From Candidatus Methanophagaceae archaeon (GTDB lineage: Archaea > Halobacteriota > Syntropharchaeia > Alkanophagales > Methanospirareceae): a DNA stretch of 32,000 nucleotides. The notes below the pieces were generated by a model. That model saw nothing but the letters and a program-made list of their open reading frames with translations. It was not told where the DNA came from and ran no database searches. The translations under genes and the position numbers were made by a program. The stretch spans positions 12,089 through 44,088 of the forward strand of contig PQXB01000004.1 of assembly GCA_003194425.1 (NCBI GenBank), written 5' to 3'. Positions 1-17,019 of this stretch are shown here, in pieces. Each line of letters starts with the position of its first letter. Position 1 is the first letter of the stretch.

Positions 1-1202
1 AACTCTTTGCCCCCCTTCCACCCCCCTCCTAACCGCCGCAGTCTCTCAACGAGTTCAGGACTCTGCCCGAGCAGCCTGACCGAAGTCCTCCAACTTTTCC
101 CTGCCACCGCGACCTGACTGCAAAGCCAGTAAACACTCGCAACTAATTCTTTGCCCCCTCCCCCTTGCTCTTCTTCTTCTCCTTCCCCACACTTCAGTAG
201 TCTCGCAACGAGTGCCGGGCTCTCCTCAAGCAGCCGAGCAGCGACAAAACCGTCGTCCTTGTTGACTTCACAACAAAGTTCCGCCAGCTGCTCCAAAGAC
301 TCGCACCCCACTCGCCCAACGAGTGCCGGACTCATTTCAAGTAGCCGAGCAGCGACAAAACTGTCCTCCCGCGCAACCCGACTGCAAAGTCCCACAACCT
401 CCTCTAAACCCTCGTACCCCACTCCCTCTCTGCCTACAAGTTCAGGACTCCACGCAAGCAGCTTGACCGCGGTTCCACCACTAAACCCCGCGACCTCACC
501 GCAAAGACCCGCCACCCTCTCCAACCCCTCGTAACCCACTCGGTCAAGGAGTTCGGGGCTCCGCTCAAGCAACGCAGCAACAAATCTTCGCTCCCTGCCT
601 CTGCCCCTACCCTCCCCGTCTTTACCAACCCGACTGCAAAGACCCGCAACCTTCTCCAAACCCTCGTAGCCCACTCGGTCAAGGAGTTCTGGACTTAGCC
701 CCACCAGCCGAGCAGCGACAAAACTGTCCTCCCGTGCGACCCGACTGCAAAGACTCGCAACCTTCTCTAACCCTTCGTAACCCACTCGGTCAAGGAGTTC
801 GGGGCTCCGCTCAAGCAACCTAATCGCAGTCCCTTCCCCTGCCTCCCCTACCTTCCCTACCTTACCTTCCTTTCCCACCTCCCCTGCCGCCCCTACCTCC
901 CTGGCGACCTGACTGCAAAGCCCGTAAACCTTCGCAACTAATTCCTTGCCGCCGTCTTTGTCCCCCTCTCCACACTTCAGCAACCTCTCAATGAGTTCTG
1001 GACTCTCCTCAAGCAGACTAACCGCGACCTGACTGCAAACACTCGCCACTTTCTCCAACCCCTCGTAACCTACGCGGTCGAGCAACGGACACAATTTACT
1101 GACCAACTTCTCAAGAATTTCACCCTCGTAATCGTAATTCCCGCCAAGCAATTTCCTTAATTTCCTCGCTCCAAGAGCCTTCTTGATAGAATTCCTCTCC
1201 AT
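1..1202 (-). CDS. Tandem-repeat protein, N-terminus complete, C-terminus beyond left window edge (>=400 aa); candidate partner subunit of the adjacent MoxR-class ATPase
   Basis: Absent from the supplied ORF track because it runs off the edge. Manual codon-by-codon translation of the minus strand from the ATG (complement of 1200-1202) to position 3 gives 400 codons with no stop. The product starts MERNSIKKALGARKLRKLLGGNYDYEGEILEKLVSKLCPLLDRVGYEGLEKVASVCSQVA. It contains at least 8 degenerate repeats with core LLExSPELLDRVGYEGLEKVAxLCSRVA. The start lies 12 nt after the stop of the ATPase gene (1215). Confidence 0.8.
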   Translation of the reverse strand, partial: MERNSIKKALGARKLRKLLGGNYDYEGEILEKLVSKLCPLLDRVGYEGLEKVASVCSQVAVSLLEESPELIERLLKCGEGDKDGGKELVAKVYGLCSQVAREVGAAGEVGKEGKVGKVGEAGEGTAIRLLERSPELLDRVGYEGLEKVASLCSRVAREDSFVAARLVGLSPELLDRVGYEGLEKVAGLCSRVGKDGEGRGRGRERRFVAALLERSPELLDRVGYEGLERVAGLCGEVAGFSGGTAVKLLAWSPELVGREGVGYEGLEEVVGLCSRVAREDSFVAARLLEMSPALVGRVGCESLEQLAELCCEVNKDDGFVAARLLEESPALVARLLKCGEGEEEEQGGGGKELVASVYWLCSQVAVAGKSWRTSVRLLGQSPELVERLRRLGGGWKGGKE

Positions 1203-1214
1203 TTTCTGCAGCCT

Positions 1215-2045
1215 TTACACCTCAAAATAGTTCTTAAGAATCTCCTCAATGCTCCTCTTTAGGTCGCTGTCGTGCGTCAAAGGCTCGGTCAGCGTCGAGA
1301 ACAACGCGTCCCTCGTCGGCACGCCGCTCTTCAGCAAAGTTGCCGCGTAGACAAGTTCTCGGGTAGAAACGCCCTCTTCGAGCCCCTGCTGAACGAGGTT
1401 TCGGATTTTGTTCGCCGCCCGCACTAACAGGGTCGCAACCTCCTCCTCAACGCCCGTCTCCTGCTTCACTATTTCTGTCTCCAACTCCTCGCAGGGCCAA
1501 CCAAGGGAAATGCTCACGAACCGCTGCCTCGTGCTCTGTTTCAACTCCTTCAAGACGCTCTGGTAGCCCGGGTTGTAGCTCACGACGAGCATAAAATCAG
1601 GGGGTGCGTAAAAAATCTTGCCCAATTTCTCAACGAGCAGAGACCTTCTGTAGTCAGTTAGCGGGTGAATGACGACCGTGGTGTCCTTCCTCGCCTCCAC
1701 TACCTCGTCCAAGTAAACGATTCCACCGTTCTTCACAGCCATCAAAAGCGGGCCGTCAATCCACTCCACCCCGTCACCTTTAATTATGTAGCGCCCCGTC
1801 AGGTCGTTCCCGCTCAAGTCGTCGTGGCAGGCAACCGTGTAGAGCGGCAGACCCAACTTCCACGCCAAATGCTCAACCAACCTCGTCTTCCCGCTCCCCG
1901 TCGGCCCCTTTAGCATTACAGGGAGTTTTTTCTCGTAGGCTGCCTCAAACAACGCAACCTCGTTGCCCTGCGGTAAGTAAAACGGCTCCTCTTTTACCTC
2001 AAACCCTCTGTCCTCGTATAAACTTGTCTCTTCTCTGTTTGGCAT
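1215..2045 (-). CDS. AAA+ ATPase, MoxR class, CbbQ/NirQ/NorQ/GvpN family
   Basis: 276-aa ORF. Walker A LKGPTGSGKTRL and Walker B-like GGIVYLDEV. The C-terminal block GVSTRELVYAATLLKSGVP...LTEPLTHDSDL resembles the CbbQ_C domain. SD-like AGGTGA lies 6 nt upstream of the ATG. Family call from motif memory only. Confidence 0.85.
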   Translation of the reverse strand: MPNREETSLYEDRGFEVKEEPFYLPQGNEVALFEAAYEKKLPVMLKGPTGSGKTRLVEHLAWKLGLPLYTVACHDDLSGNDLTGRYIIKGDGVEWIDGPLLMAVKNGGIVYLDEVVEARKDTTVVIHPLTDYRRSLLVEKLGKIFYAPPDFMLVVSYNPGYQSVLKELKQSTRQRFVSISLGWPCEELETEIVKQETGVEEEVATLLVRAANKIRNLVQQGLEEGVSTRELVYAATLLKSGVPTRDALFSTLTEPLTHDSDLKRSIEEILKNYFEV

Positions 2046-2051
2046 TTAGAT

Positions 2052-2864
2052 TCACCTAACCTCTCCAACCTCTCCAACCTCTCTAACCTCTCCAACCTCT
2101 CCAACCTCCCCCACCTCTCCAACCTCCCCCACCTCTCCAATCTTCCACTCCGCCTTCCGCAGAATTCCCCTCAGCGTCTGCACCTCCCTCGCAGTAAGCC
2201 CTGCCCTGCCTAGAATTCGCCGGAGCAGAAGCAGGGTCTTCTCCTTCTTGTGCTTCTTGTAGCCGATTTCGTCGAAGAACGACCTTGCGTGAGCGAAGAG
2301 CTGTTCTTTAGCCGCGGTAGTCGCTAATTCTGACGCTCCTGCTGGGGAAACTTCTCCGCCTCTCTCTCTCGCCCAGCTCAGTTCGTAAAGAAGCACCGCA
2401 ACCGCGTGCGAGAGGTTCATCGCAGGGTAGTCAGGACTCGTGGGAATGCAGACAACAAGGTCGCAAAGCCCAAGTTCCTCGTTCCGCAGCCCTGTGTCCT
2501 CCCTGCCAAAGAGGACTGACAGAACGCCTCCGCTACCAAATCCTTCAACCTTCTCTCTCAATTCTCGCAGCGAGAAGAAGGGCGTTCTGAGGTGTTTGTT
2601 CGGAGAGACGCCGTGCTTGGAGGTTGTGCCGACGACGGCAGCCGAGCCCGCAACCGCCTCCTGCACAGTGCCTACGACCTCGCACCCAGTCAGCACGTCG
2701 TGAGCGTGAGAGGCGACAGCCACCGCTTTCTCTCCTGCCCTTGGGTTAGGGGGGGCGGGATTTACCAAAAAAAACTCCGAGAACCCGAAGTTCTTTAGCA
2801 CCCGTGCTACTGCTCCAATGTTCTCCTCAAGCTTCGGCTCAACAAGAACCGTCCTTAACTGCAT
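2052..2864 (-). CDS. trmJ: SPOUT-class tRNA 2'-O-methyltransferase (TrmJ/COG0565-like) with C-terminal (GEV)n repeat tail
   Basis: VLVEPKLEENIGAVARVLKNFGF..LVNP, SVLFGREDTGLRNEEL and AMNLSHAVAVLLYEL parallel E. coli TrmJ blocks ([53 protein letters not shown]). I prefer the ATG at 2864 (MQLRTV...) to the track start at 2960. The 2865-2960 extension overlaps the 3' end of the radical SAM gene. Confidence 0.75.
   Translation of the reverse strand: MQLRTVLVEPKLEENIGAVARVLKNFGFSEFFLVNPAPPNPRAGEKAVAVASHAHDVLTGCEVVGTVQEAVAGSAAVVGTTSKHGVSPNKHLRTPFFSLRELREKVEGFGSGGVLSVLFGREDTGLRNEELGLCDLVVCIPTSPDYPAMNLSHAVAVLLYELSWARERGGEVSPAGASELATTAAKEQLFAHARSFFDEIGYKKHKKEKTLLLLRRILGRAGLTAREVQTLRGILRKAEWKIGEVGEVGEVGEVGEVGEVREVGEVGEVR
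2058..2138. repeat. 9-bp tandem repeat x9 (AACCTCTCC on + strand; GGAGAGGTT on coding strand), encodes (GEV)n tail of TrmJ-like protein
   Basis: Read directly: aacctctcc aacctctcc aacctctct aacctctcc aacctctcc aacctcccc cacctctcc aacctcccc cacctctcc. Confidence 0.95.
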
Positions 2865-2868
2865 AAAC

Positions 2869-2894
2869 TTTTTCTTAAAAATTTTTCTTAAAAA
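2869..2894. repeat. 13-bp perfect tandem duplication (TTTTTCTTAAAAA x2) spanning radical SAM stop / trmJ start junction
   Basis: Read directly at 2869-2881 and 2882-2894. Confidence 0.9.
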
Positions 2895-3834
2895 ATTTCC
2901 TCGTCGCCTCTTCAAGCCGGCGGCGGTACTCAGGGTCGTCTCCCTTACCCCGTACCGCACGAAGAATCTCTTCTCTCGTGCTTGATTTTGAGCGAGTGAG
3001 CCACGAGATTCGGTCTTCCTCCTGGTCTTTTATCGTCCGTCGCTTGAAGGTGAGGTCTGGGTAGACGGTTACCCAAGTCTCCTGTGCAGGCGGCGTGGGG
3101 TACTCGCGGTAGCAACTCCTGCTAATAATTGTGTTCGGGTGGTGCTTGGAGGCGAGTTCGTAGGCTCGCTCAATCTCCTCGATCGTCGGTCGCCTCGTGA
3201 CCTCCTCGAACGCGAAGGTCGGTGCAAATGGGTTTATTCGGTATTTTATCTCGTGGCTCACGCCCGACAGGAATTTCGCTATTTTTTCAATTTCGTCAGC
3301 CTCTACAATGCCTGGCATAAAAACCGTCTGAATTAGCAACTCCGTCCCCGCCTCGCTCAACGCCCGGACCGCGTTAAAGACAGGCTTGTTGGACTTCCCA
3401 GTGTACCACTCGTGAATCTCCTCCGAGAACGCTTTAATGTCAATGTGCGCCTCGGTCAAGCCCGCGTCCACCAGCTCGGCAGCAAAATCCCCTCTCTCTT
3501 CTCTCTCGCCTCCGCCGACTTTGTAACCGTTGGACATCAGAACAATCTCCTCAAACCCACGCTCCTTCAGCCCCCTTACGAGTGTCAGCAGAAAATCCCT
3601 GTCGAGCGCGGGTTCGCCGCCCGTAATCATCGCCTTGCTCGGAAGTTCTCCGTAGTGTCTGCGGCACGCCTGCTCTGCCCGCTCTAAAGTCTCCTCTGCA
3701 GTGAGCAGCGTCCCACCACCGTCTCGTGCAGGTCTGAAACAACCCCTGCACTGAAAATCGCAGCCGGTCAGCATAAACCAAACCCGCGGCTCAATCTCCG
3801 AAAGGGTAAAATATTGCACGCCTCTTTTTCCCAT
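2875..3834 (-). CDS. Radical SAM domain protein (specific function unknown)
   Basis: 319-aa ORF with C25-x3-C29-x2-C32 (CDFQCRGC) followed by ITGGEPAL (GGE SAM-binding motif). The C-terminal ~70 aa (ISWLTRSKSSTREEILRAVRGKGDDPEYRRRLEEA) are not recognised. Confidence 0.75.
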   Translation of the reverse strand: MGKRGVQYFTLSEIEPRVWFMLTGCDFQCRGCFRPARDGGGTLLTAEETLERAEQACRRHYGELPSKAMITGGEPALDRDFLLTLVRGLKERGFEEIVLMSNGYKVGGGEREERGDFAAELVDAGLTEAHIDIKAFSEEIHEWYTGKSNKPVFNAVRALSEAGTELLIQTVFMPGIVEADEIEKIAKFLSGVSHEIKYRINPFAPTFAFEEVTRRPTIEEIERAYELASKHHPNTIISRSCYREYPTPPAQETWVTVYPDLTFKRRTIKDQEEDRISWLTRSKSSTREEILRAVRGKGDDPEYRRRLEEATRKFFKKNF

Positions 3835-3868: not shown

Positions 3869-4255
3869 CTACAGCAGCCCCTCCTCCGCCAACGCCCGCA
3901 CCGCTCGGTCGCACGCGGTTGTAGCGTGCGAGACCGCTCTGCCGAGGCTTGCCTGCACCTCCTCAAAATCCACTGCTTCTGCTTCTACCCTTCGTCTCGC
4001 CTGCGCCAACTCTTCTTCTACCTGCCCGAACTCTCGCATTCCGGTCGCTCGCAACGCCATTCCCGTCTCAACGGACAGGCCGTCAAAAAAAGCACCCAAC
4101 ACCTTCTTCGCCCCCGCCAACTCCCCCTCTCTCCTCTCTTTCCCAGCTCGCCCCTCTCCCAAGGACTCTACAACCGCCAGCATTTTAGAGCAGATTATCA
4201 TCGCCGATTTTATCCGCTCCCCGAACTGATAATTTACTATCTCGTTTTTCCGCAT
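3869..4255 (-). CDS. Hypothetical small protein (128 aa, predicted mostly helical, A/E/R-rich)
   Basis: ORF co-oriented with its neighbours and 31-34 bp from each. No recognisable motif. The two + strand ORFs over it are P/S/L-rich shadows. Confidence 0.5.
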   Translation of the reverse strand: MRKNEIVNYQFGERIKSAMIICSKMLAVVESLGEGRAGKERREGELAGAKKVLGAFFDGLSVETGMALRATGMREFGQVEEELAQARRRVEAEAVDFEEVQASLGRAVSHATTACDRAVRALAEEGLL

Positions 4256-6980: not shown

Positions 6981-7897
6981 CTCTTTTTTCGGGAGAGGCA
7001 CGACTGGTTGTTTATTTTTGTCTTGAGTACCCTCCCCGCAATTCTGCTCCCTAACTCGCTCCACGCCTCTCGCAATTCCGCCCCTGCCCCCTTTTGCCCC
7101 GCCTCCGCCTCTTCCCCAACTAAAGCCACAAACGACGGTCCTGTCCCCGACAAGCTCACACCCTTCACGCCGCACTCCAACGCCCTCAAAATCGGCTCTG
7201 GGTCGAAGTTCAACGCCGCGCAGTACAGAAACCCGTTTAGCGTCATCGCCTCCTCGAACCGCTCTTCCAACGCCAGGTCAAACGCGAGGCTCACCCACGG
7301 AGCGACCAGCCTCGACCGTTTCACATTCGTCTCCGCGGTGAACGCCTTCTCCTCGGGAACGAGAAAGAGAACCTCGGAGTCCCGCTCCACCTGTTTTAGC
7401 AACGCCTGGTTTCTGTTGTCTGTTACCACGAACCCGCCGAGCAGGGAAGCACAGGCGTCGTCAAAAGCCCCTGTTACTGAGACACCGACATCCAGGGCAG
7501 CCTCAACGCCAAGCCTCACCGCGTCTAACGCACTCGTCTCCTTCAGTCTGCCCGCTGCGTCCAGAGTAGCGACCACCGCCGCGTTTGCCGCTGCACTGCT
7601 GCTCTTCAGCCCGCTTCCAACTGGGACTTCGCTCCTCGTCTTTACAAAGCCACGCAACGGCAGACCGAACTTCTGCAGCACCAACTCCACGCACCGCTCG
7701 ATCAATTTCGTGTCTCCTACTCGGCTCTCTCCCGCCACCTCCATTTCCGCGGTGACACCTCTAAAATCGTCGCCAATTTCCACCTCCGCCTCCGTCCACA
7801 AGTCAATGCCAAAAGCCGAGCCTTTGTAGGTCGCAACTGCGTTTACTACCGTCCCCGCACCGCTGGCTCTTCCACGCCCTTTCCCTTTCGCACTCAT
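6962..7897 (-). CDS. aroK: Shikimate kinase, archaeal GHMP-kinase type
   Basis: GTVVNAVATYKGSAFGIDLW matches the N-terminal block of MJ1440-type shikimate kinase. GHMP motif PVGSGLKSSSAAANA is present. The start ATG overlaps the upstream gene's stop (ATGA at 7894-7897). Confidence 0.85.
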   Translation of the reverse strand: MSAKGKGRGRASGAGTVVNAVATYKGSAFGIDLWTEAEVEIGDDFRGVTAEMEVAGESRVGDTKLIERCVELVLQKFGLPLRGFVKTRSEVPVGSGLKSSSAAANAAVVATLDAAGRLKETSALDAVRLGVEAALDVGVSVTGAFDDACASLLGGFVVTDNRNQALLKQVERDSEVLFLVPEEKAFTAETNVKRSRLVAPWVSLAFDLALEERFEEAMTLNGFLYCAALNFDPEPILRALECGVKGVSLSGTGPSFVALVGEEAEAGQKGAGAELREAWSELGSRIAGRVLKTKINNQSCLSRKKSQEIIK

Positions 7898-8640
7898 CTT
7901 TTTCTGTAATCTTGAAGTAGTTCTTGGAGTTTTTCGTCCTTGCTTTTTAGTGCTTCCTCACCGTGCACGCTGCGGATGTGGTCGAAGATGCCGACCTTCT
8001 CAGCACCGCAGAAAGGGCAGACGTAAGTCTTCTTACCGCCCTCTGCTCCTGCTCCTGCTGCTCCCTCTCGTACTGCTCCCTCTCGTACTGCTCCCGCTCG
8101 TGCTGCTCCTGCCCGCGGTCGTCCAAACAGCAGCTGCCTGTAGGAAAGAGAGAACCAGAGCAGGACAGGAAGAGCCACCCTGCAAGTGCCTGAGAGAAAA
8201 ATAACAAAAATCTGGTAAAACTCACTCGGTCCTGGCGGAGGGGCGTTCTGCAGAGAAACATACGAAAGTTGCAAAATCACACGAAATAAGAAGAGAACAG
8301 GAACGCCGACGAGGAGCGTCTTTGCCTTCCTTTTCAACTCACTTTTCAACTTACACTTCACCTCGCCCTTTACCTCGCCCTTTACCTCGCCCTTCACCTC
8401 GCCCTTCACCTCGCCCTTCACCTCGCCCGTCGCCAGCACCAAAGCAGCGAACACGGGGATGCAACTCCGAATTCCCTGCGAGAAAAGGTAGTCGGGTGCA
8501 GCAGGAGTAGGCGAACCTGTCATTTTTAGCACCGCCGAAAAATAAACAGACGCAACAGGAATCCAAAGCAGGTAAAGCAGCGTCGCAAACAAGAGGAATT
8601 TGCCGAGAAACAGTCCGTATTCTTTACTTCTACTTTTCAT
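7894..8640 (-). CDS. Membrane protein (about 4 TM) with internal (GEVK)n loop, A/G/R/E repeat and C-terminal C2H2-like zinc knuckle
   Basis: 248 aa. Hydrophobic segments include FLLFATLLYLLWIPVASVYF, CIPVFAALVLA, LLVGVPVLFLFRVIL and ALPVLLWFSL. C-terminal YVCPFCGAEKVGIFDHIRSVHGEE gives C-x2-C-x9-H-x4-H. Overlaps the upstream gene by 11 nt. Confidence 0.6.
   Translation of the reverse strand: MKSRSKEYGLFLGKFLLFATLLYLLWIPVASVYFSAVLKMTGSPTPAAPDYLFSQGIRSCIPVFAALVLATGEVKGEVKGEVKGEVKGEVKGEVKCKLKSELKRKAKTLLVGVPVLFLFRVILQLSYVSLQNAPPPGPSEFYQIFVIFLSGTCRVALPVLLWFSLSYRQLLFGRPRAGAARAGAVREGAVREGAAGAGAEGGKKTYVCPFCGAEKVGIFDHIRSVHGEEALKSKDEKLQELLQDYRKR
8058..8117. repeat. 15-bp tandem repeat x4 (CTGCTCCCTCTCGTA-like), encodes AGAVREGAVREGAAGAG
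   Basis: Units at 8058, 8073, 8088 and 8103; the first two are identical. Confidence 0.9.
8357..8428. repeat. 12-bp tandem repeat x6 (TTYACCTCGCCC), encodes (GEVK)n
   Basis: Units at 8357, 8369, 8381, 8393, 8405 and 8417, read directly. Confidence 0.95.
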
Positions 8641-9196
8641 TTTTCTCCACCACCTTGTCCCGCCAAATCAGGAAGAGAAGCACGACGAAGAAGATGAGGA
8701 AGACTTGCCAGAGGTAAGTGTGAAAGAGGTCGAGCAGCGAGGGGACGAACGCACCGACCAACGCAGTAGAACTTAACCGCACAAGCGTAATTCCGTAGAG
8801 AACGGGAACGCCGAGCAGTCCGACTGCTTTCTGCTTTAGCCCTGTTGGGTAGGCGAGCACGACCGAGCAGTAGACGATTATCGAAAATATCCCTGTGCAT
8901 TCTCCGATTATATTTACTGTAGCGTCGCCGACCCTACCTCCGACCGTCACAAAACTTCCGTTCGCAGCAGCGTTCAACCCGATTATGTTTAGAAGCAACG
9001 CAACCAAAAACGCAGTAACCTCTCTCGGCACTCTTTGGTCGCCTGCGATTTTGAAATAAGCGAAGTTGAGTGCGAAGCAGAGTGCGAGGAAGAGTGCGAC
9101 TGTCTTTAAAACTTCCTTGTGCTCCTCAAGAACCTCTCTCGTCGGTCTTGTCTTCGCTTTTCTCCCCGCTTCTCCTCTCCTCTTCGCCTTTGTCAT
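8630..9196 (-). CDS. Small exosortase/archaeosortase-family membrane protein (tentative)
   Basis: Polytopic. IIGECTGIFSIIVYCSVVLAYP has a Cys in an xCxG context, followed 40 residues later by Arg (ITLVRLSS) and then His (LFHTYLW). As I recall, this order and spacing fit the exosortase/archaeosortase catalytic residues. ATG at 9196 (MTKAKRR) is preferred; the track uses TTG at 9205. Confidence 0.5.
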   Translation of the reverse strand: MTKAKRRGEAGRKAKTRPTREVLEEHKEVLKTVALFLALCFALNFAYFKIAGDQRVPREVTAFLVALLLNIIGLNAAANGSFVTVGGRVGDATVNIIGECTGIFSIIVYCSVVLAYPTGLKQKAVGLLGVPVLYGITLVRLSSTALVGAFVPSLLDLFHTYLWQVFLIFFVVLLFLIWRDKVVEKNEK

Positions 9197-9221
9197 TAGT
9201 CTCAATTTTTGTCATTAGTCT
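9189..9221. repeat. 14-nt direct repeat TTTGTCATTAGTCT x2 (19-bp period) duplicating the start-codon region of the archaeosortase-like gene
   Basis: Copies at 9189-9202 and 9208-9221. Each carries a CAT (ATG on the minus strand), and the two are out of frame with each other. Confidence 0.9.
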
Positions 9222-9410: not shown

Positions 9411-12400
9411 ATGCCAAAAAACACAAACTTCAAGCAGGTAGAAGCGAAGTGGCAGCGGAGGTGGGAGGAGAGCGGGATTTTTGACGCCGAACCCCGCGGC
9501 GGTGCGAAGAAGTTCTTCCTGACCGTCCCTTACCCCTACACCTCCGGACCACTCCACATCGGGCACGGCAGAACGAACACAGTGGGCGACATAATCGCAA
9601 GGTTCAAGCGACTGCAGGGCTACAACGTGCTCTTCCCGATGGCTTTTCATGTTACAGGGACGCCGATTTTGGCGATCGCAGACAGCATTTCAAAAAGCGA
9701 GGGCGAGGTCGTGAAGCTGTACAAAGAATATGTCTCGATTTACGAAGGAGGGGACGCTGCGAGTGCGGCGAGGGTTGAGGAGACGGTTCGCAGTTTCACC
9801 GACGCAGCGAGGGTCGCGGAGTTCTTTGCTGCGCGGATTTCAGAAGACTTCAAGAGAATGGGCTACTCGATCGACTGGCGGCGGAAGTTCAACACCACCG
9901 AGCCGATTTACAACAAGTTCGTCGAGTGGCAGTTCAAGAAACTCTACGATAAGGGAGTAATAAAAAAAGGAAAATATCCAATTACTTTTTCTGCCGCCGA
10001 CAACTCGCCGGTCGGTGAGGACGACATCGAGGAAGGGGACACGAACAAGGTCTCAATCGTCGAGCAGACGACAGTGAAGTTCGAAGTTTCGGACGGCAGT
10101 GGCAGTTACTTGGTTGCGGCAACACTGCGGCCAGAAACGATTTTTGGCGTTACGAACCTCTGGGTGAACCCGACTGCGAAGTATGTTAAAGTCAAAGTTC
10201 GGGTAAGAGCGGGGGAGGAGATTTGGTGGGTCTCGAAAGAAGCAGCGGAGAAGTTGAGCTACCAGCGAGAAGGAGTGGCGGTTTTAGAGGGGGAGACAGA
10301 AGAAGAAGGCGGATTTTTTCTGGGCAAGGTAGTGAAGGTGCCGGTGGCGGGCGGCGGGAGAGAAGTGCCGGTTCTTCCTGCGAGCTTCGTTGACGCGGAC
10401 GTCGGCACTGGCGTGGTCTACTCGGTTCCCGCGCACGCACCTTACGACTACATCGCGTTGGAGGATTTGAAGCGGTCGGGAGTGCTGAAGCGGTCGGGAG
10501 TGCTGAAGCGGTTGGGAGTGCTGGATGCAGAAATCGAGCCGATAAAAATTATTGAGATTGAGGGCTACGAGACAGGACTGCCGGCGAAAGAGATTTGCGA
10601 GCGGCTGGAAATAAAAAGTCAGGCGGACGAGGAGCGGTTGGAGGAAGCCACGCAGACGATTTACAAGGACGAATTTTATCGGGGCGTGCTGAACGAGAAG
10701 TGCGGCGAGTTTGCGGGCGTGAAGATTGCGGAAATAAAGGACGAGGTCAAGGAGTGGCTGAAGCGGGAAAATAAAGGGGATGTGTTTTACGAGACCTCGC
10801 GGAAGGCGGTGACGCGGGGCGGAGGGAAGGTGGTCGTTGCGGTTCTGCAGGACCAGTGGTTCATTGACTACACGCCAAGTTGGTGGAAAGAGCGGGGGCA
10901 CAAACTCGTTGACGGGATGACTTTTTACCCCGCGAAATACAAGGCTTACATGCACGAGATTATTGATTGGCTGACGTTGCGACCGTGTGCGAGGAAGCGG
11001 GGGCTGGGCACGCGGTTTCCGTTTGAGCAGGGATGGGTGATTGAGTCGCTGAGCGATTCTACGATTTATATGGCGTTGTACACCGTGGCACACCTGCTGA
11101 GGGGGTTGCCGGTTGAAAGTTTAACCGAGGATTTTTTTGATTTCGTGTTTCTGGGAATTGGGGACGCAGAGGCGTTGGCGAAGGCTGCGGGCGTTGAAAC
11201 GGGCGTTGAAGCGAGCGTCCTGAAGCGTGTGCAGGAGGAGTTTAAGTACTGGTACCCGAACGACCTGCGGCACACTGCACCGCCGCACCTCTCAAACCAC
11301 CTCGTCTTCTTCTTGATGCACCACGCGGCGATTTTTCCGGAGCGTTGCTGGCCGCGGGCGATTACGCTGAACGAGTTGATGATTCGCGAGGGACGGAAAA
11401 TCTCGAAGAGCAAGGGGAACGTGATTCCGCTGGCGAAGGTCTCGGAACTTTACGGCGTGGATTTGTTCAGGCTCTACTGCGCGATTAACGCGGACTTCGC
11501 GAGCGTGGTAAATTGGCGTGAGCAGGATGTGGACGCTTTGGGGAGGCGGTTTAACGCGGTGGTAGAGCTGTTTGAGGACTCTTTAACTGCGGAGTGTGCG
11601 ACTGTGGAGCGTGCGACTGTGGAGCGTGCGAAAGGGTTGAGAGAGGACGAACTCACGCACGCGGACAGGTGGCTGCTCTCGCGGTTCTACCGAACTTTAA
11701 AGGAAACGGTCGAGCGGTTCGCAGCGTTCCGAATTCGAGACGCGGGCATAAATTTGGTCTTCAATTTGATGAACGACATCAGACACTACGAGCAGCGGGC
11801 GAGCGTTGAGAGGCGGAAGCGGCTCGTGCGGTGCGTGCTGGAGGAGTGGCTGGTGGTTCTCTCGCCGATTGTGCCGCACATTTGCGAGGAGTTTTGGGAG
11901 CGGCTGAGGTTGCAGTTGCAGAGGCAGAGGTCGCACGACTCGTTCGTCTCTTTACAGCGGCTGCCGGAGGTGAAGGAGCGGTTTATTGACGACCGAGTGG
12001 AGCGTGAGGAGGAGTTTTTGGCTGCGTTGGTTGCGGACATAAAAGAGATTTTGAGAGTGGCAAGGATCTCGCCCAAACCTCGCAAAATCTACATTTACAC
12101 CGCGGAGCAGTGGAAGTGGGAAATATTCAAGGCGGTGAAGGACTTGCCAGAGCGGGAAAAGATTAGGAAGGCGGTTCGAGTCAGGGGAAGAAAAGGAGAG
12201 GAAAAAAGCACGGTGGATTTCGTGAAGCAGTTGGTGAAGAGCAAAAGCGGTCTGGAGTATTTTGAGCTTGTGGAGGCGGAGGTTCTGGAGCGTGAAAAGG
12301 AGTATTTAAAGGGGGAATTCGGGTGTGAAATCGGAGTGAACGAGGAGCACGACCCGTTGGGGAAGCGGAGGTTTGCGATTCCGCTGAAGCCTGCGATTTT

Positions 12401-12416
12401 TGTGGAGGGCGGGTGA
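9411..12416 (+). CDS. leuS: Leucyl-tRNA synthetase (archaeal type)
   Basis: 1001 aa. HIGH region PYTSGPLHIGHGRT and KMSKS region KISKSKGN. Also VPAHAPYDYIAL and WFIDY blocks. Confidence 0.95.
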   Translation: MPKNTNFKQVEAKWQRRWEESGIFDAEPRGGAKKFFLTVPYPYTSGPLHIGHGRTNTVGDIIARFKRLQGYNVLFPMAFHVTGTPILAIADSISKSEGEVVKLYKEYVSIYEGGDAASAARVEETVRSFTDAARVAEFFAARISEDFKRMGYSIDWRRKFNTTEPIYNKFVEWQFKKLYDKGVIKKGKYPITFSAADNSPVGEDDIEEGDTNKVSIVEQTTVKFEVSDGSGSYLVAATLRPETIFGVTNLWVNPTAKYVKVKVRVRAGEEIWWVSKEAAEKLSYQREGVAVLEGETEEEGGFFLGKVVKVPVAGGGREVPVLPASFVDADVGTGVVYSVPAHAPYDYIALEDLKRSGVLKRSGVLKRLGVLDAEIEPIKIIEIEGYETGLPAKEICERLEIKSQADEERLEEATQTIYKDEFYRGVLNEKCGEFAGVKIAEIKDEVKEWLKRENKGDVFYETSRKAVTRGGGKVVVAVLQDQWFIDYTPSWWKERGHKLVDGMTFYPAKYKAYMHEIIDWLTLRPCARKRGLGTRFPFEQGWVIESLSDSTIYMALYTVAHLLRGLPVESLTEDFFDFVFLGIGDAEALAKAAGVETGVEASVLKRVQEEFKYWYPNDLRHTAPPHLSNHLVFFLMHHAAIFPERCWPRAITLNELMIREGRKISKSKGNVIPLAKVSELYGVDLFRLYCAINADFASVVNWREQDVDALGRRFNAVVELFEDSLTAECATVERATVERAKGLREDELTHADRWLLSRFYRTLKETVERFAAFRIRDAGINLVFNLMNDIRHYEQRASVERRKRLVRCVLEEWLVVLSPIVPHICEEFWERLRLQLQRQRSHDSFVSLQRLPEVKERFIDDRVEREEEFLAALVADIKEILRVARISPKPRKIYIYTAEQWKWEIFKAVKDLPEREKIRKAVRVRGRKGEEKSTVDFVKQLVKSKSGLEYFELVEAEVLEREKEYLKGEFGCEIGVNEEHDPLGKRRFAIPLKPAIFVEGG
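10470..10523. repeat. 18-bp tandem repeat x3 (AAGCGGTCGGGAGTGCTG), in frame, encodes KRSGVL KRSGVL KRLGVL inside LeuRS
   Basis: Units at 10470, 10488 and 10506; the third has one substitution. Confidence 0.95.
11596..11631. repeat. 15-bp tandem repeat x2.4 (GTGCGACTGTGGAGC), encodes ATVERATVERA inside LeuRS
   Basis: Units at 11596 and 11611, partial third at 11626. Confidence 0.9.
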
Positions 12417-12567: not shown

Positions 12568-12588
12568 TTTCTGGAGTAATTCGTGAAA

Positions 12589-13902
<1,314 letters not shown>

Positions 13903-13903
13903 T

Positions 13904-15757
13904 TTAGCCTGTTTGTAAAATTTCCAACTCCACAATTTCCCGCCGCTCCACATCCACTAACCCCTTGTCCGTTATTTTCAACTTCGGAATCACAGGCAGA
14001 GCGAGGAAAGAGAGAGCGACAAAAGGAGCCTGCAGCTCGCAGCCCATTTCACGAACCGCGGCTTCCATTTCTTCCTGCTTCTTCACCACAAAGTCCAGCC
14101 CTCGATCGCTCATTAGCCCCGCAATCGGCAGTCCCAACTCTGCCTTCACCTTTACCTTCACTTCACCTCCCTCTCCCCCCTCACCTCCGCTGCCACTGCA
14201 CAGAACTACTCCGCCTCCCAGTTCGCGCAAGCGGTTGCAAGCGAACGCCATTTCCTCTCCGCTCGTGCCTACAACAACGATGTTGTGCGAGTCGTGAGCG
14301 ACTGAGGAGGCGACAGCACCGGTCTTCAAGCCAAACCCTTTTACGAAGCCCAGCCCGATGTTTCCGGTGCCGTGGTGCCGCTCGAGAACTGCGATTTTCA
14401 AAATGTCTCGAGTCGTGTCTACTCCTTTTCCGTCCACTCCACTCACCTCCTCTACGAGCTCCTCGGTCAGGAGTTCTCCTTCTACTAAGCCAATTATTCT
14501 CGCTCTCCTTCTTCCGCCTCTCTTTCTTCCGCCTCCGTCCAAATTTATCTCAAAATCCTCGGGCTTTACTGCTCGCTTTAGCCTCACGCTCTCGCCGTAT
14601 TTTGGGTACTTCCATTTAACAGGGCGAGGAGCGAAATCAAGATCTGCCAAACGCTTTCCGTTCACCACAACCTCCGCCACTTCAAACCGCTCCAAGTTTT
14701 TCAAGAGCACGAGGTCTGCGACCTTGCTGGGCGAAATGCTGCCCAGAAAGTCGTCGAGTCCGAACCACTCCGCGGGGTTCAGCGTGCACATTTGCACCGC
14801 TCTCACAGGGTCGACGCCTTCCTCGACCGCCCTTCTAAAGACAAAGTCCAAGTAGCCCTGCTCCTTCAAGTCCCGTGGCGTTCGGTCGCCGTCTGTAACG
14901 AGAAGGCAGTTCCTCGTCTCTCTCTGCGCCTGTCTCGCGGTTTCCTGTCCTGACTTCAAGAGCGGAGCGAGGCTCTTCAGGTTCTTCGCCACCGACCCTT
15001 CCCTCACAAGCACCCGCAACCCCAACCGCAGTTTCTCTAACGCCTCCTCGTAAGAGACGCACTCGTGGTCTGACCCGACGCCACTCAAAACATAAGCGTT
15101 CAACTCTTTCCCGCGGAGCAGAGGTGCGTGCCCGTCGATCGGGACTTTTAACGCCCTCGCAACCTCTAATTTCTCCCACACCCCCTCCTCCTTCGCCAAG
15201 ACGCCACCGTAATTCATCACCTCTGCCAAGCCGACGACCCGCTCCTCGGTCTGCAGCAGTTCCTTTACCTCTCCCGCACCCAGCCTCGCACCCGAGGTCT
15301 CAAGCCCAAGTTCGGGCTCGGTAGAAGGCACGCAGGAGGGAGCAGTGCAAAACACCTTCAGCGGCGTTGTTTTCGCCTCTTCCAAAATCGCTCGCACGCC
15401 CGCAACGCCCAGAACATTCGCAATCTCGTGCGGGTCCGAGACCACCGCGGTCGTCCCACGAGGCACCACTGCCTTCGCAAACTCGGTCACCGAAAGCAAA
15501 CTCATCTCGATGTGCGTGTGCCCGTCCACCAGTCCCGGAACTGCATATTTACCCTGCGCGTCAATTTCTTCTCTCCCCTTCCACTCGCAACTTCCCACGC
15601 CTAAACCCACTACCACACCACGAGCAACCGCAATCTCGGTCTCGTAAATCTCACCACTGCAGACATTCACGAGGTTCGCATTTTTTATCACCAAATCCGC
15701 TTTCCGCCTGCCCAAAGCAACCTCAACCAAACCCTTCGTCAAGCCCTTCGCTCTCAT
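13904..15757 (-). CDS. ade: Adenine deaminase
   Basis: 617 aa. ADLVIKNANLVNVCSGEIYETEIAVARGVVVGLG and IDAQGKYAVPGLVDGHTHIEMS parallel the B. subtilis AdeC N-terminus and the amidohydrolase HxH motif. Confidence 0.9.
   Translation of the reverse strand: MRAKGLTKGLVEVALGRRKADLVIKNANLVNVCSGEIYETEIAVARGVVVGLGVGSCEWKGREEIDAQGKYAVPGLVDGHTHIEMSLLSVTEFAKAVVPRGTTAVVSDPHEIANVLGVAGVRAILEEAKTTPLKVFCTAPSCVPSTEPELGLETSGARLGAGEVKELLQTEERVVGLAEVMNYGGVLAKEEGVWEKLEVARALKVPIDGHAPLLRGKELNAYVLSGVGSDHECVSYEEALEKLRLGLRVLVREGSVAKNLKSLAPLLKSGQETARQAQRETRNCLLVTDGDRTPRDLKEQGYLDFVFRRAVEEGVDPVRAVQMCTLNPAEWFGLDDFLGSISPSKVADLVLLKNLERFEVAEVVVNGKRLADLDFAPRPVKWKYPKYGESVRLKRAVKPEDFEINLDGGGRKRGGRRRARIIGLVEGELLTEELVEEVSGVDGKGVDTTRDILKIAVLERHHGTGNIGLGFVKGFGLKTGAVASSVAHDSHNIVVVGTSGEEMAFACNRLRELGGGVVLCSGSGGEGGEGGEVKVKVKAELGLPIAGLMSDRGLDFVVKKQEEMEAAVREMGCELQAPFVALSFLALPVIPKLKITDKGLVDVERREIVELEILQTG
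14145..14188. repeat. Short 6-bp-type repeats encoding GGEGGEGGEVKVKVK insert in adenine deaminase
   Basis: ttcacc tttacc ttcact tcacc tccctc tccccc ctcacc tcc, read directly. Confidence 0.85.
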
Positions 15758-15780: not shown

Positions 15781-17019
15781 TTACAGGCGCTTCAAGACGG
15801 CTTTTACCAGTCCCACCGCCCCTGTCATCATCATATCCCCCGCAGGTGCAGAGAAAAATCCGAGCCCTCTCATCTTCTCACGCCTCGGTCCTGTCAGAGA
15901 AATTATCTCGGGTTTGGTTTTACCCTTTCCCGTTCCAATCGTCAGCGCTCCGTGCCCGCCGTCGGCAAAGACCTCCTCAAATGTTAAGCTTCCGTCTGAG
16001 AGTTTTTTTAGGTAGTAGCTGAGTTTCTGCCTGGCGAGCAGCCGTGTGTGGTGCTCAAAAATACCGGTTATTCTGCTCCCGCTCCCGCTTCCGCTTCCGT
16101 TCTCACTTCCGCTTCCGTTTCCACTTCCGCTTAGCGACATCGCGATTGTGTGCGCGTTCCCGACATTTACGCAAATCAAACTCTTCTTTTCCTTCACCAC
16201 CCCCTTCACCCGCTCGTCCTCAAGCGAGCCCAAGACCGCAGCGGGACCCGTGTCCATCAAAAGCACAGGACCCTTGTGCCAGCTCTTCACGGACTGGAAG
16301 ACCGATTTCATTCTGCTGAGATTGTCTGGCACTGCGTCGAGGTAAGCAAAGGACTCAATTTCCGCTTCTGCTCCTCCACCTCCGCCTGCTTCTCTGCCTG
16401 CTTCTCTCCCTTCCCCTCTCCCTTCCCCTCTCCCTTCCCCTCTCCCTTCTCCCCCTCCTGCTTCTCTGCCAGCCCCGCTGCCAACTTTCTCCGCGATTAT
16501 GCGAAACCGATTTTCTCGGTCGCTAACTCCCGGCGGTGCCACGCCGTGGTCCTGAACCGCGACCGCGACAGCGTCAAAAGAAGTGTCCACGCCGAACGAG
16601 GCGAGGAGCGGGAGAAGTTCGGGGTTGAACTCCGAAATTCTTAAGGGCTTCGCTTTCCCCTTTTTTCCCTCCTTCTCGGTCAGGCTCACTACTTTGTCTG
16701 CTACTTCGTCTTCAGAAATTATCTCGACCCCGTAGCCCCGCACGACTGCCAAGTCGTCTCTCAGCGTTCTCGCCGCCCGTTCGGTTGCGTAGACCTTGTA
16801 TTTCTTGAGGTGCTCGAGCACGGCACGGCTGAACGGACCGCCGCCGATTGTCTCGCCAAAAATCACCAAGTCCTGCTCTGCTCTCCGCACTTCTTCGGCG
16901 AAGAAGCGAGTCGGAGAAGGCAGAACGAGTTTGTAAGCGTTCTCGAAGCCTTCCTCGTCGTCGTAAACCATTATGTCCTGCGTTCCTGCTCCTATGTCAA
17001 CGGCTAATATTTTCATCAC
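15781..17019 (-). CDS. ASKHA (actin-like ATPase) fold protein, DUF1786-like, with two low-complexity inserts
   Basis: N-terminal ILAVDIGAGTQDIMVYD is a phosphate-1 type motif, followed by KLVLPSPT. It resembles my recollection of DUF1786 (PF08735). The family call is tentative. Confidence 0.45.
   Translation of the reverse strand: MMKILAVDIGAGTQDIMVYDDEEGFENAYKLVLPSPTRFFAEEVRRAEQDLVIFGETIGGGPFSRAVLEHLKKYKVYATERAARTLRDDLAVVRGYGVEIISEDEVADKVVSLTEKEGKKGKAKPLRISEFNPELLPLLASFGVDTSFDAVAVAVQDHGVAPPGVSDRENRFRIIAEKVGSGAGREAGGGEGRGEGRGEGRGEGREAGREAGGGGGAEAEIESFAYLDAVPDNLSRMKSVFQSVKSWHKGPVLLMDTGPAAVLGSLEDERVKGVVKEKKSLICVNVGNAHTIAMSLSGSGNGSGSENGSGSGSGSRITGIFEHHTRLLARQKLSYYLKKLSDGSLTFEEVFADGGHGALTIGTGKGKTKPEIISLTGPRREKMRGLGFFSAPAGDMMMTGAVGLVKAVLKRL
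16075..16131. repeat. 6-bp repeat array (GCTYCC-like x9), encodes GSGNGSGSENGSGSGSGS
   Basis: Read directly. Confidence 0.9.
16385..16468. repeat. 12-bp tandem repeat x7 (CCTGCTTCTCTG / CCTTCCCCTCTC), encodes REAGGGEGRGEGRGEGRGEGREAGREAG
   Basis: Units every 12 bp from 16385. Two unit types are arranged symmetrically as A A B B B b A. Confidence 0.9.

Follow-up and report, generated by a model that had tools for sequence, protein, structure and literature searches.

Here, we describe a gene pair at one end of a 32,000-nucleotide stretch of DNA (hereafter the window) from a Candidatus Methanophagaceae archaeon, a member of the anaerobic methanotrophic archaea of group 1 (ANME-1; assembly GCA_003194425.1, contig PQXB01000004.1). 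Positions 1-2045 of the window probably encode a two-gene MoxR/VWA remodelling chaperone module of this thermophilic archaeon, in which an ATPase is paired with a VWA-domain protein that carries an alpha-solenoid extension, putatively for client recognition. The arrangement is of a known kind, in which a NorD/CbbO-like VWA adaptor accompanies a CbbQ/NorQ ATPase; what is new is a rare repeat domain at the N-terminus of the adaptor.

The ATPase gene and its predicted partner

The ATPase appears to be a member of the CbbQ/NirQ/NorQ subfamily of MoxR AAA+ ATPases, the class to which an earlier note on this DNA, made by reading the letters alone, had assigned it. Two Pfam domains are matched beyond their curated cut-offs, AAA_5 (PF07728, 9e-31) and CbbQ_C (PF08406, 1e-27), and residues 15-274 match the solved structures of NorQ (9qhd_A) and of CbbQ (6l1q and 5c3c) at an E-value of about 1e-91. 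The Walker A motif reads GPTGSGKT (residues 47-54); the Walker B motif, VYLDE, was identified by inspecting the translated sequence, the motif search having failed to recover it. The protein is identical to PXF50230.1 and to MCW7071418.1 (Methanophagales archaeon), and the exact sequence is present on more than 20 public contigs.

The earlier note had also placed an ATG 12 nucleotides past the ATPase stop and, from that ATG, a minus-strand frame of 400 codons open to the window edge. Both were found on direct reading and translation, and the product of the frame begins with MERNSIKK. The frame was missing from the list of open reading frames (ORFs) because it runs past the window edge; the ORFs that were listed in the region (151-534 on the plus strand, rich in serine and proline, and 434-682 on the minus strand) are shadow ORFs. 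The protein had been called untracked, which is right for that ORF list and wrong for GenBank, where an assembly gap divides the gene and both pieces are annotated as partial hypothetical proteins. The 400 residues of the window are 100% identical to the first of these, PXF50229.1 (P0178, 'hypothetical protein C4B55_06765, partial', from a Candidatus Methanophagaceae archaeon, an ANME-1 metagenome-assembled genome (MAG)). The second, PXF50228.1 (P0177), is a 750-residue partial protein on the same 47.5-kb GenBank contig; it begins with GGGKGGKELVLKVY, overlaps the last residues of the window fragment and reaches the C-terminus, and the window thus ends where the assembly breaks, within a G-rich, low-complexity part of one gene. 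The overlapping ends read GGGWKGGKE in the 400-residue piece and GGGKGGKE in the 750-residue piece; the tryptophan close to the edge probably arose as an error at the contig end, a glycine being found at that place in other strains.

Uninterrupted copies of the partner gene, 1143-1154 codons long, occur in six of the contigs with the exact ATPase sequence (L003-L008), whose DNA is 98.5-99.6% identical to the window and in which the 12-nucleotide spacer recurs, and orthologues in other ANME-1 are 52-61% identical to the window fragment. By all appearances the window edge cuts a real gene for a VWA partner of about 1145 residues of the CbbQ/NorQ-type ATPase. In the 1145-residue form of L004, which serves for numbering the full-length protein, a leader is followed by about 11 repeats (to about residue 470), a middle domain (about 485-750), a long linker of partly low complexity, and a NorD-like finger and VWA domain. 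Residues 852-1143 align with residues 349-643 of the solved NorD, namely the finger, the VWA domain and the C-terminal tail, at an E-value of 1.9e-46, and the alignment takes in RREFQMLRPEG and the terminal RIYKRF. Pfam recognises a VWA domain at 1e-8 (residues 964-1117), and the MIDAS motif (metal-ion-dependent adhesion site; DxSxS...T...D) is complete, with D969, S971, S973, T1042 and D1070; it is present in PXF50228.1 and in L003-L008. Judged by this alignment, the partner retains every element that in NorD is known to touch the ATPase, namely finger and C-terminal tail, and also the MIDAS, known to touch the client. A VWA domain past the edge, and with it a VWA/MIDAS protein in the position downstream of the ATPase, had been predicted from the window alone; in all six contigs the gene indeed ends in such a domain.

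A rare helical-repeat domain

The first 450 residues or so of the partner appear to form a previously undescribed, rare helical-repeat (alpha-solenoid) domain. The window holds eight complete repeat units and one cut unit, the canonical unit being 37 residues long and the variant unit about 41 (Table 1). A hidden Markov model (HMM) of the 37-residue unit, made from the orthologue of another species (P0001), scores 336 bits on the fragment, while none of 500 shuffles exceeded 9.3 bits; with it, six canonical units can be marked off (residues 42-71, 138-173, 175-218, 220-256, 261-295 and 297-332), and the variant units match in part. The repetition is also visible in the DNA as five 84-nucleotide copies, 67-90% identical and spaced 111 or 135 nucleotides apart, with a Tandem Repeats Finder period of 111 nucleotides. 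The canonical consensus is DRVGY[DE]GLEK[VI]AxLxxx[VI]A-x6-A[VA]xLLExSP[DE]LI; in the variant, the first half is swapped for [DE]RLLxYGDKxLVxxVYxLxxxVA, and the 41-residue variant units are interleaved among the canonical ones at fixed places. The earlier count of at least eight repeats, with five canonical units bracketed by two variants, agrees with this layout (units 3-7 between variants 2 and 8). In the region of the leader, the AlphaFold2 model places helices at residues 2-22 and 27-59.

Table 1. Features read on the minus strand of positions 1-2045 of the window; residue numbers are those of the encoded proteins.
Feature	Position	Strand	Evidence
CbbQ/NorQ-type MoxR AAA+ ATPase, 276 residues	1215-2045	-	Pfam domains, PDB profile match, Walker A
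Intergenic spacer, 12 nucleotides	1203-1214	-	CbbQ stop TAA at 1215-1217, partner ATG at 1200-1202; direct reading
First 400 codons of the VWA partner gene of about 1145 residues (PXF50229.1, partial), cut by the window/assembly edge	1-1202	-	Open frame, GenBank identity, orthologues
N-terminal leader, residues 1-41, basic helix and half-unit EILEKLVSKLCPLL	1080-1202	-	Conserved in ANME-1 orthologues (alignment A1)
Unit 1, canonical, shortened, residues 42-71	990-1079	-	Unit HMM, 41.4 bits
Unit 2, variant (ERLLKCGEG..KELVAKVYGLCSQVA), residues 72-137, with strain-variable (E/K)VG low-complexity loop insert	792-989	-	Unit HMM, in part
Unit 3, canonical, 37 residues, 138-174	681-791	-	Unit HMM, 67.6 bits
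Unit 4, canonical with G/R-rich loop insert, residues 175-219	546-680	-	Unit HMM, 37.5 bits
Unit 5, canonical, residues 220-256	435-545	-	Unit HMM, 47.9 bits
Unit 6, canonical, residues 257-295	318-434	-	Unit HMM, 68.3 bits
Unit 7, canonical, residues 296-332	207-317	-	Unit HMM, 58.6 bits
Unit 8, variant with E/G-rich insert, residues 333-385	48-206	-	Partial unit HMM, 18.6 bits; aligned with variant units of orthologues
Unit 9 (start), variant, residues 386-400, cut by the edge	1-47	-	Continuation in L004 and in P0177 (begins GGGKGGKELVLKVY)

No named repeat family was matched by these units. Pfam gave no repeat-family match at E<=0.001 (HEAT, ARM, TPR, PPR and PUF included) for the window fragment and about 12 members of the family (P0001, P0014, P0022, P0027, P0035-37, P0040, P0041, P0044, P0047 and P0058), NCBIfam has no family for the repeats in the members scanned, and PADLOC has none for the partner protein. 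A profile of the repeat domain, run against 1.84 billion representative proteins, matched 87 at E<=1e-3, 48 at E<=1e-10 and 28 at E<=1e-30; against the sequences of the PDB it returned designed proteins only, no natural protein among them, and the solved NorD was not matched. The AlphaFold2 model of the 400 residues is entirely helical, with a mean predicted local distance difference test score (pLDDT) of 71 and a predicted template modelling score (pTM) of 0.62, and a Foldseek search of the PDB with this model found de novo designed helical-repeat proteins only (best E-value 5e-3, template modelling score at most 0.31). The earlier note could not assign the repeats to a named family, and this is sustained; the possibility weighed there, that they are the usual N-terminus of NorD and CbbO proteins, is contradicted by these profile searches. 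The domain shares with HEAT, ARM, TPR, Sel1, PPR and HPR solenoids the tandem helical units of about 37 residues, the small and hydrophobic core positions and the all-helical predicted fold; it differs from them in lacking any Pfam or NCBIfam match, in its own consensus and in the interleaved 41-residue variant. The isoelectric point is 4.8-5.3 in four of the five repeat domains tested and 8.4, slightly basic, in one bacterial domain; the acidic character favours protein binding over nucleic-acid binding.

A cysteine had been noted in every unit, and this holds for all complete units of the window. As a feature of the family it does not stand: at unit position 15, cysteine occupies 73% of ANME-1 units and only 18% of the units of distant relatives, where alanine, serine or glycine is found instead. 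A role of this cysteine as a metal or redox ligand was considered and rejected on the ground that the position accepts A, S or G; the position is one of small-residue packing, and the cysteine is no conserved ligand.

The loops of the repeats in the window's species carry low-complexity inserts rich in G, E, K and S, absent from other species and variable in length between strains. A case in point is a microsatellite of 9-nucleotide period at 835-901 (minus strand), which encodes the (E/K)VG runs in the loop of unit 2 and yields inserts of different length in L003, L004 and the window. A second microsatellite of the same period (2058-2140, minus strand) encodes GEVGEVGEV in the C-terminal tail of the adjacent SpoU-type methylase, and both vary in copy number among strains that share 98.5-99.6% identity. 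Variation is also seen in an (SSG)n run at a later point of the partner gene, with at least 8 copies in L003 and 3 in L004.

The middle domain

Between the repeats and the linker lies a domain (about residues 485-750) with two nearly invariant motifs, TDGxxIxLP and ATHEEAHLEYGSFDF; the conserved pattern is also given as TDGxxIxLP ... ATHEEAHLEYGSF. AlphaFold2 predicts a compact alpha/beta unit (pLDDT 90.5, pTM 0.87). A profile of the domain (A4) found nothing in the PDB at E<=1, Foldseek of the model (pLDDT 90) found nothing in the PDB below an E-value of 0.3 and no NorD chain, and word-indexed protein searches for CbbO-type relatives returned members of the same family only. The resemblance to NorD's N-terminal domain is one of motif only (DGxxxxLP), worth 1.0 bit. 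An HEEAH motif after the repeats raised the possibility of a zincin-like HExxH metallopeptidase; it was rejected, for the motif degenerates to THQEAH, TRLEAH, TLEEAK, TIEEAR and THQAGR in other members, and no peptidase was matched by the partner protein in Pfam or by the middle domain in Foldseek.

Distribution, pairing and split forms

When one genome per species was scanned, the repeat domain turned up in 31, and almost all of these carry the label ANME-1, Methanophagales or Syntrophoarchaeum-like. Smithella (NLN39179.1, 'VWA domain-containing protein') and Thermodesulfobacteriota have more distant members, with about 20 repeats and 1400-1472 residues; a Methanosarcinaceae MAG holds a partial member of 1137 residues, and Desulfobacterales hold shorter split forms. 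Of the 35 loci compared, 24 have a CbbQ gene upstream of the repeat gene, among them all four bacterial loci examined (L040-L043), and the pairing first seen in the window is conserved in ANME-1 and in bacteria. The two genes are adjacent in most of these loci and a few kb apart in L001, L016 and L020; in L001 (3575-4543) and L020 (2851-3795), a protein with DUF1186 and a SEC-C motif, with faint HEAT-like matches, follows CbbQ, and the repeat gene comes several kb further on. The ATPase of the window is 69-74% identical to its bacterial counterparts in L040-L043 (Smithella-like, Desulfobacterales and others). Such identity is unusually high across domains and therefore suggests that the ATPase of the module has moved between archaea and bacteria by horizontal transfer.

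In most ANME-1 species and in one Desulfobacterales genome, the partner is encoded by two cistrons, split at one fixed point after KAKYGE and often overlapping stop to start as ATGA; the window's species has it fused, as do two further species (L028 and L033). The split point falls within the middle domain, which in the AlphaFold2 prediction nonetheless folds as one unit. In L001 (11593-12361) and L002 (6962-7730), a HEPN/nucleotidyltransferase (MNT-type) toxin-antitoxin pair sits on the opposite strand exactly between the split halves.

Neighbouring genes and the search for a client

No nor or Rubisco gene appears in the returned gene tables of the loci or among the Pfam-scanned genes of the window, and since nor and cbb genes are unlinked in the loci examined, the client is probably neither cNOR nor Rubisco. 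The sole recurring neighbour is the mtr operon. In 10 ANME-1 species (L001, at 1-3565, L009, L010, L013, L016, L025, L026, L027, L029 and L032), this operon, up to MtrH of the tetrahydromethanopterin S-methyltransferase, lies together with the orotidine monophosphate decarboxylase gene pyrF directly upstream of CbbQ; the arrangement is limited to one clade and is found neither in the window's species nor in the bacteria. The linkage could be inherited synteny. The module might also be pictured as dedicated to maturing or repairing a core metalloenzyme of anaerobic one-carbon or alkane metabolism, with the corrinoid Mtr methyltransferase complex as one candidate, and as having been exchanged between ANME-1 and neighbouring syntrophic or sulfate-reducing bacteria; we regard this as a distinctly doubtful proposal. 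A search of the literature on ANME-1 together with CbbQ, NorQ or MoxR found no paper that mentions the module in ANME.

Next to the ATPase in the window, the SpoU methylase gene has a longest ORF of 302 codons (2052-2960, minus strand, GTG start), which overlaps a radical-SAM gene (2875-3834, minus strand) by 86 nucleotides; its start probably lies further downstream, because gene calls on sister contigs give 252-270 residues. Four further ORFs of 128-439 residues (3869-4255, 7894-8640, 8630-9205 and 12583-13902) have no Pfam match at E<=0.001, and around them lie housekeeping genes, namely leucyl-tRNA synthetase (9411-12416), adenine deaminase (13904-15757) and a DUF1786 gene (15781-17019).

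Comparison with NorQD and CbbQO and a proposed mechanism

Two known systems invite comparison. NorQ/NorD, the chaperone that inserts FeB into cNOR (PDB 9qhd and 9qh6; PMC13036017, PMC9976466), shares with the ANME-1 pair the ATPase family, a partner gene directly downstream of the ATPase gene, and an overall plan of N-terminal region, long linker and VWA domain, in which finger, VWA, MIDAS (DxSxS-T-D) and C-terminal tail align. There are also differences. The solved NorD proteins have 638-646 residues against about 1145 here and up to 1472 in relatives; some 450-500 additional N-terminal residues are made of the 37- and 41-residue repeats, the domain that follows them is not detectably NorD-N-terminal-like, and the gene is often two cistrons. 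Moreover, no nor genes are linked, and the hosts (ANME-1, Smithella, Desulfobacterales) are strict anaerobes. The Rubisco activase CbbQ/CbbO of Acidithiobacillus ferrooxidans (Q1O1 and Q2O2; CbbQ PDB 5c3c and 6l1q; PMC5437159) has an equally similar ATPase (about 1e-90) and a single adaptor with a C-terminal VWA/MIDAS domain encoded downstream of it, whereas CbbO2 has 759 residues and no reported repeats (PMC5437159), and no Rubisco gene is adjacent at the ANME-1 locus.

The mechanism of NorQD has been described by cryo-electron microscopy (PMC13036017), and in the CbbQO system the N-terminal part of CbbO (residues 1-444) binds the hexamer (PMC5437159). By homology with these two systems, we infer how the ANME-1 complex might form and work and what its solenoid might do. 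The ATPase would form a hexamer and bind one adaptor, whose finger would sit in the pore. ATP hydrolysis would then rotate the VWA domain against the N-terminal part, twisting and stretching the linker, and a client gripped by the MIDAS site on one side and by the N-terminal region on the other would be remodelled, a metal being inserted or an inhibitor released. Among MoxR-associated VWA proteins, the N-terminal region differs in length, that of NorD is unrelated to that of CbbO, and such regions have been proposed to set target specificity (PMC9976466); for this reason the repeat solenoid is assigned a putative role as an added, lineage-specific surface for client recognition or scaffolding.

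Several observations weigh against a remodelling chaperone of this kind, or at least against parts of the picture. No client was identified, and flanking genes are not conserved between lineages: none of the window's neighbours (SpoU methylase, radical SAM, DUF166, aminotransferase, endonuclease III and others) recurs at the loci of other species. The VWA part lies outside the window itself, and the structure model of the repeats is of moderate confidence only. The middle domain does not appear, by profile or by predicted structure, to be related to NorD's N-terminal domain, and the step in which the N-terminal domain docks on the ATPase is therefore transferred by analogy only. In five ANME-1 species, the VWA half is not found within 2-5.6 kb downstream; furthermore, among the C-half proteins of some ANME-1, there is an internal deletion of about 78 residues that removes the DxSxS strand of the MIDAS or, in one, a truncation at 202 residues. 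The proteins and loci with such changes are P0140, P0143 and P0144 and L010, L014, L019, L020 and L027. Where the VWA half is missing, truncated or devoid of DxSxS, the repeat half may act alone, or the system may be decaying; the pattern suggests that the VWA half has decayed or been relocated in some ANME-1 lineages.

Alternative explanations

The 400 open codons might have arisen by chance in repetitive, GC-rich DNA, or through an error of assembly, given that the assembly breaks at the window edge, in a G-rich stretch of low complexity, and that GenBank holds the gene in two partial pieces. Conservation across species refutes this: orthologues 52-61% identical, with position-specific conservation, occur in at least 31 species genomes, the gene is intact in independent assemblies, at 1143-1154 residues, and the unit HMM separates the fragment widely from its shuffled versions (336 bits against at most 9.3), so that we consider it hardly credible. 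Another objection is that the pair could be an ordinary NorQ/NorD pair for the maturation of nitric oxide reductase, or an ordinary CbbQ/CbbO Rubisco activase, the repeats being the usual N-terminal region. Some relatives are named 'nitric oxide reductase NorD protein' by the Joint Genome Institute, the C-terminal 290 residues match NorD at an E-value of 2e-46, and for the ATPase the matches to NorQ and to CbbQ are equally strong, at about 1e-91. The length of the partner, however, exceeds that of NorD and of CbbO2 (PMC5437159) by several hundred residues, the repeat profile reaches only 87 of 1.84 billion representatives and leaves the NorD of the PDB unmatched, no likeness to NorD is detectable in the domain that follows the repeats, and neither nor nor Rubisco genes were called in the locus tables or the scanned window genes. 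This explanation is largely refuted and must be held improbable.

Other readings accept the domain and dispute its function. The solenoid could be a regulatory, autoinhibitory or oligomerisation scaffold, or a nucleic-acid binder like PPR, PUF or HPR repeats: a helical unit of 37 residues is within the length range of RNA-binding solenoids, the N-terminal half is a separate protein in most ANME-1 species, at times with no VWA half nearby, and one bacterial repeat domain is slightly basic. The other four of the five domains tested are acidic, though, no match to PPR, PUF, TPR, HEAT or ARM was found in Pfam, and the tight operon linkage to CbbQ and to the VWA domain suits an adaptor role; we deem such a scaffold or binder unlikely. 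Along the same line, MoxR-vWA modules are known from conflict systems, and the module could be an anti-phage device instead of an enzyme chaperone, as its patchy, cross-domain distribution, the 69-74% identity of the ATPase across domains and the toxin-antitoxin pair between the halves in L001 and L002 might suggest. That pair, however, is on the opposite strand and occurs in one lineage only; PADLOC leaves the partner without a family, and the ATPase gives only weak, P-loop-level matches to IetA (best E-value 6e-6 over about 40 residues). The neighbours in the window are housekeeping genes, no consistent placement in defence islands was seen, an effector domain (a nuclease or protease, for example) is lacking, and the HExxH-like motif is not conserved in the family. 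All this makes a conflict system very improbable, and a MoxR/VWA chaperone module with a client-recognition solenoid is the reading retained here.

Implications

Few AAA+ machines are less well understood than MoxR/VWA pairs, whose choice of client is thought to reside in the N-terminal portion of the VWA protein, which is variable. In the family described here this part is unusually large and modular, a solenoid of 11 to about 20 repeats, and it is limited to a few strict anaerobes, uncultured methane oxidisers among them; it thus offers a clean case for studying how client specificity arises in the MoxR/VWA class. The repeat domain could be entered in domain databases, and the common break point of the fused and split forms marks a natural domain boundary, useful in the design of constructs. 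To sum up, the module points to a step of enzyme maturation, remodelling or repair in ANME-1 and in some syntrophic bacteria.

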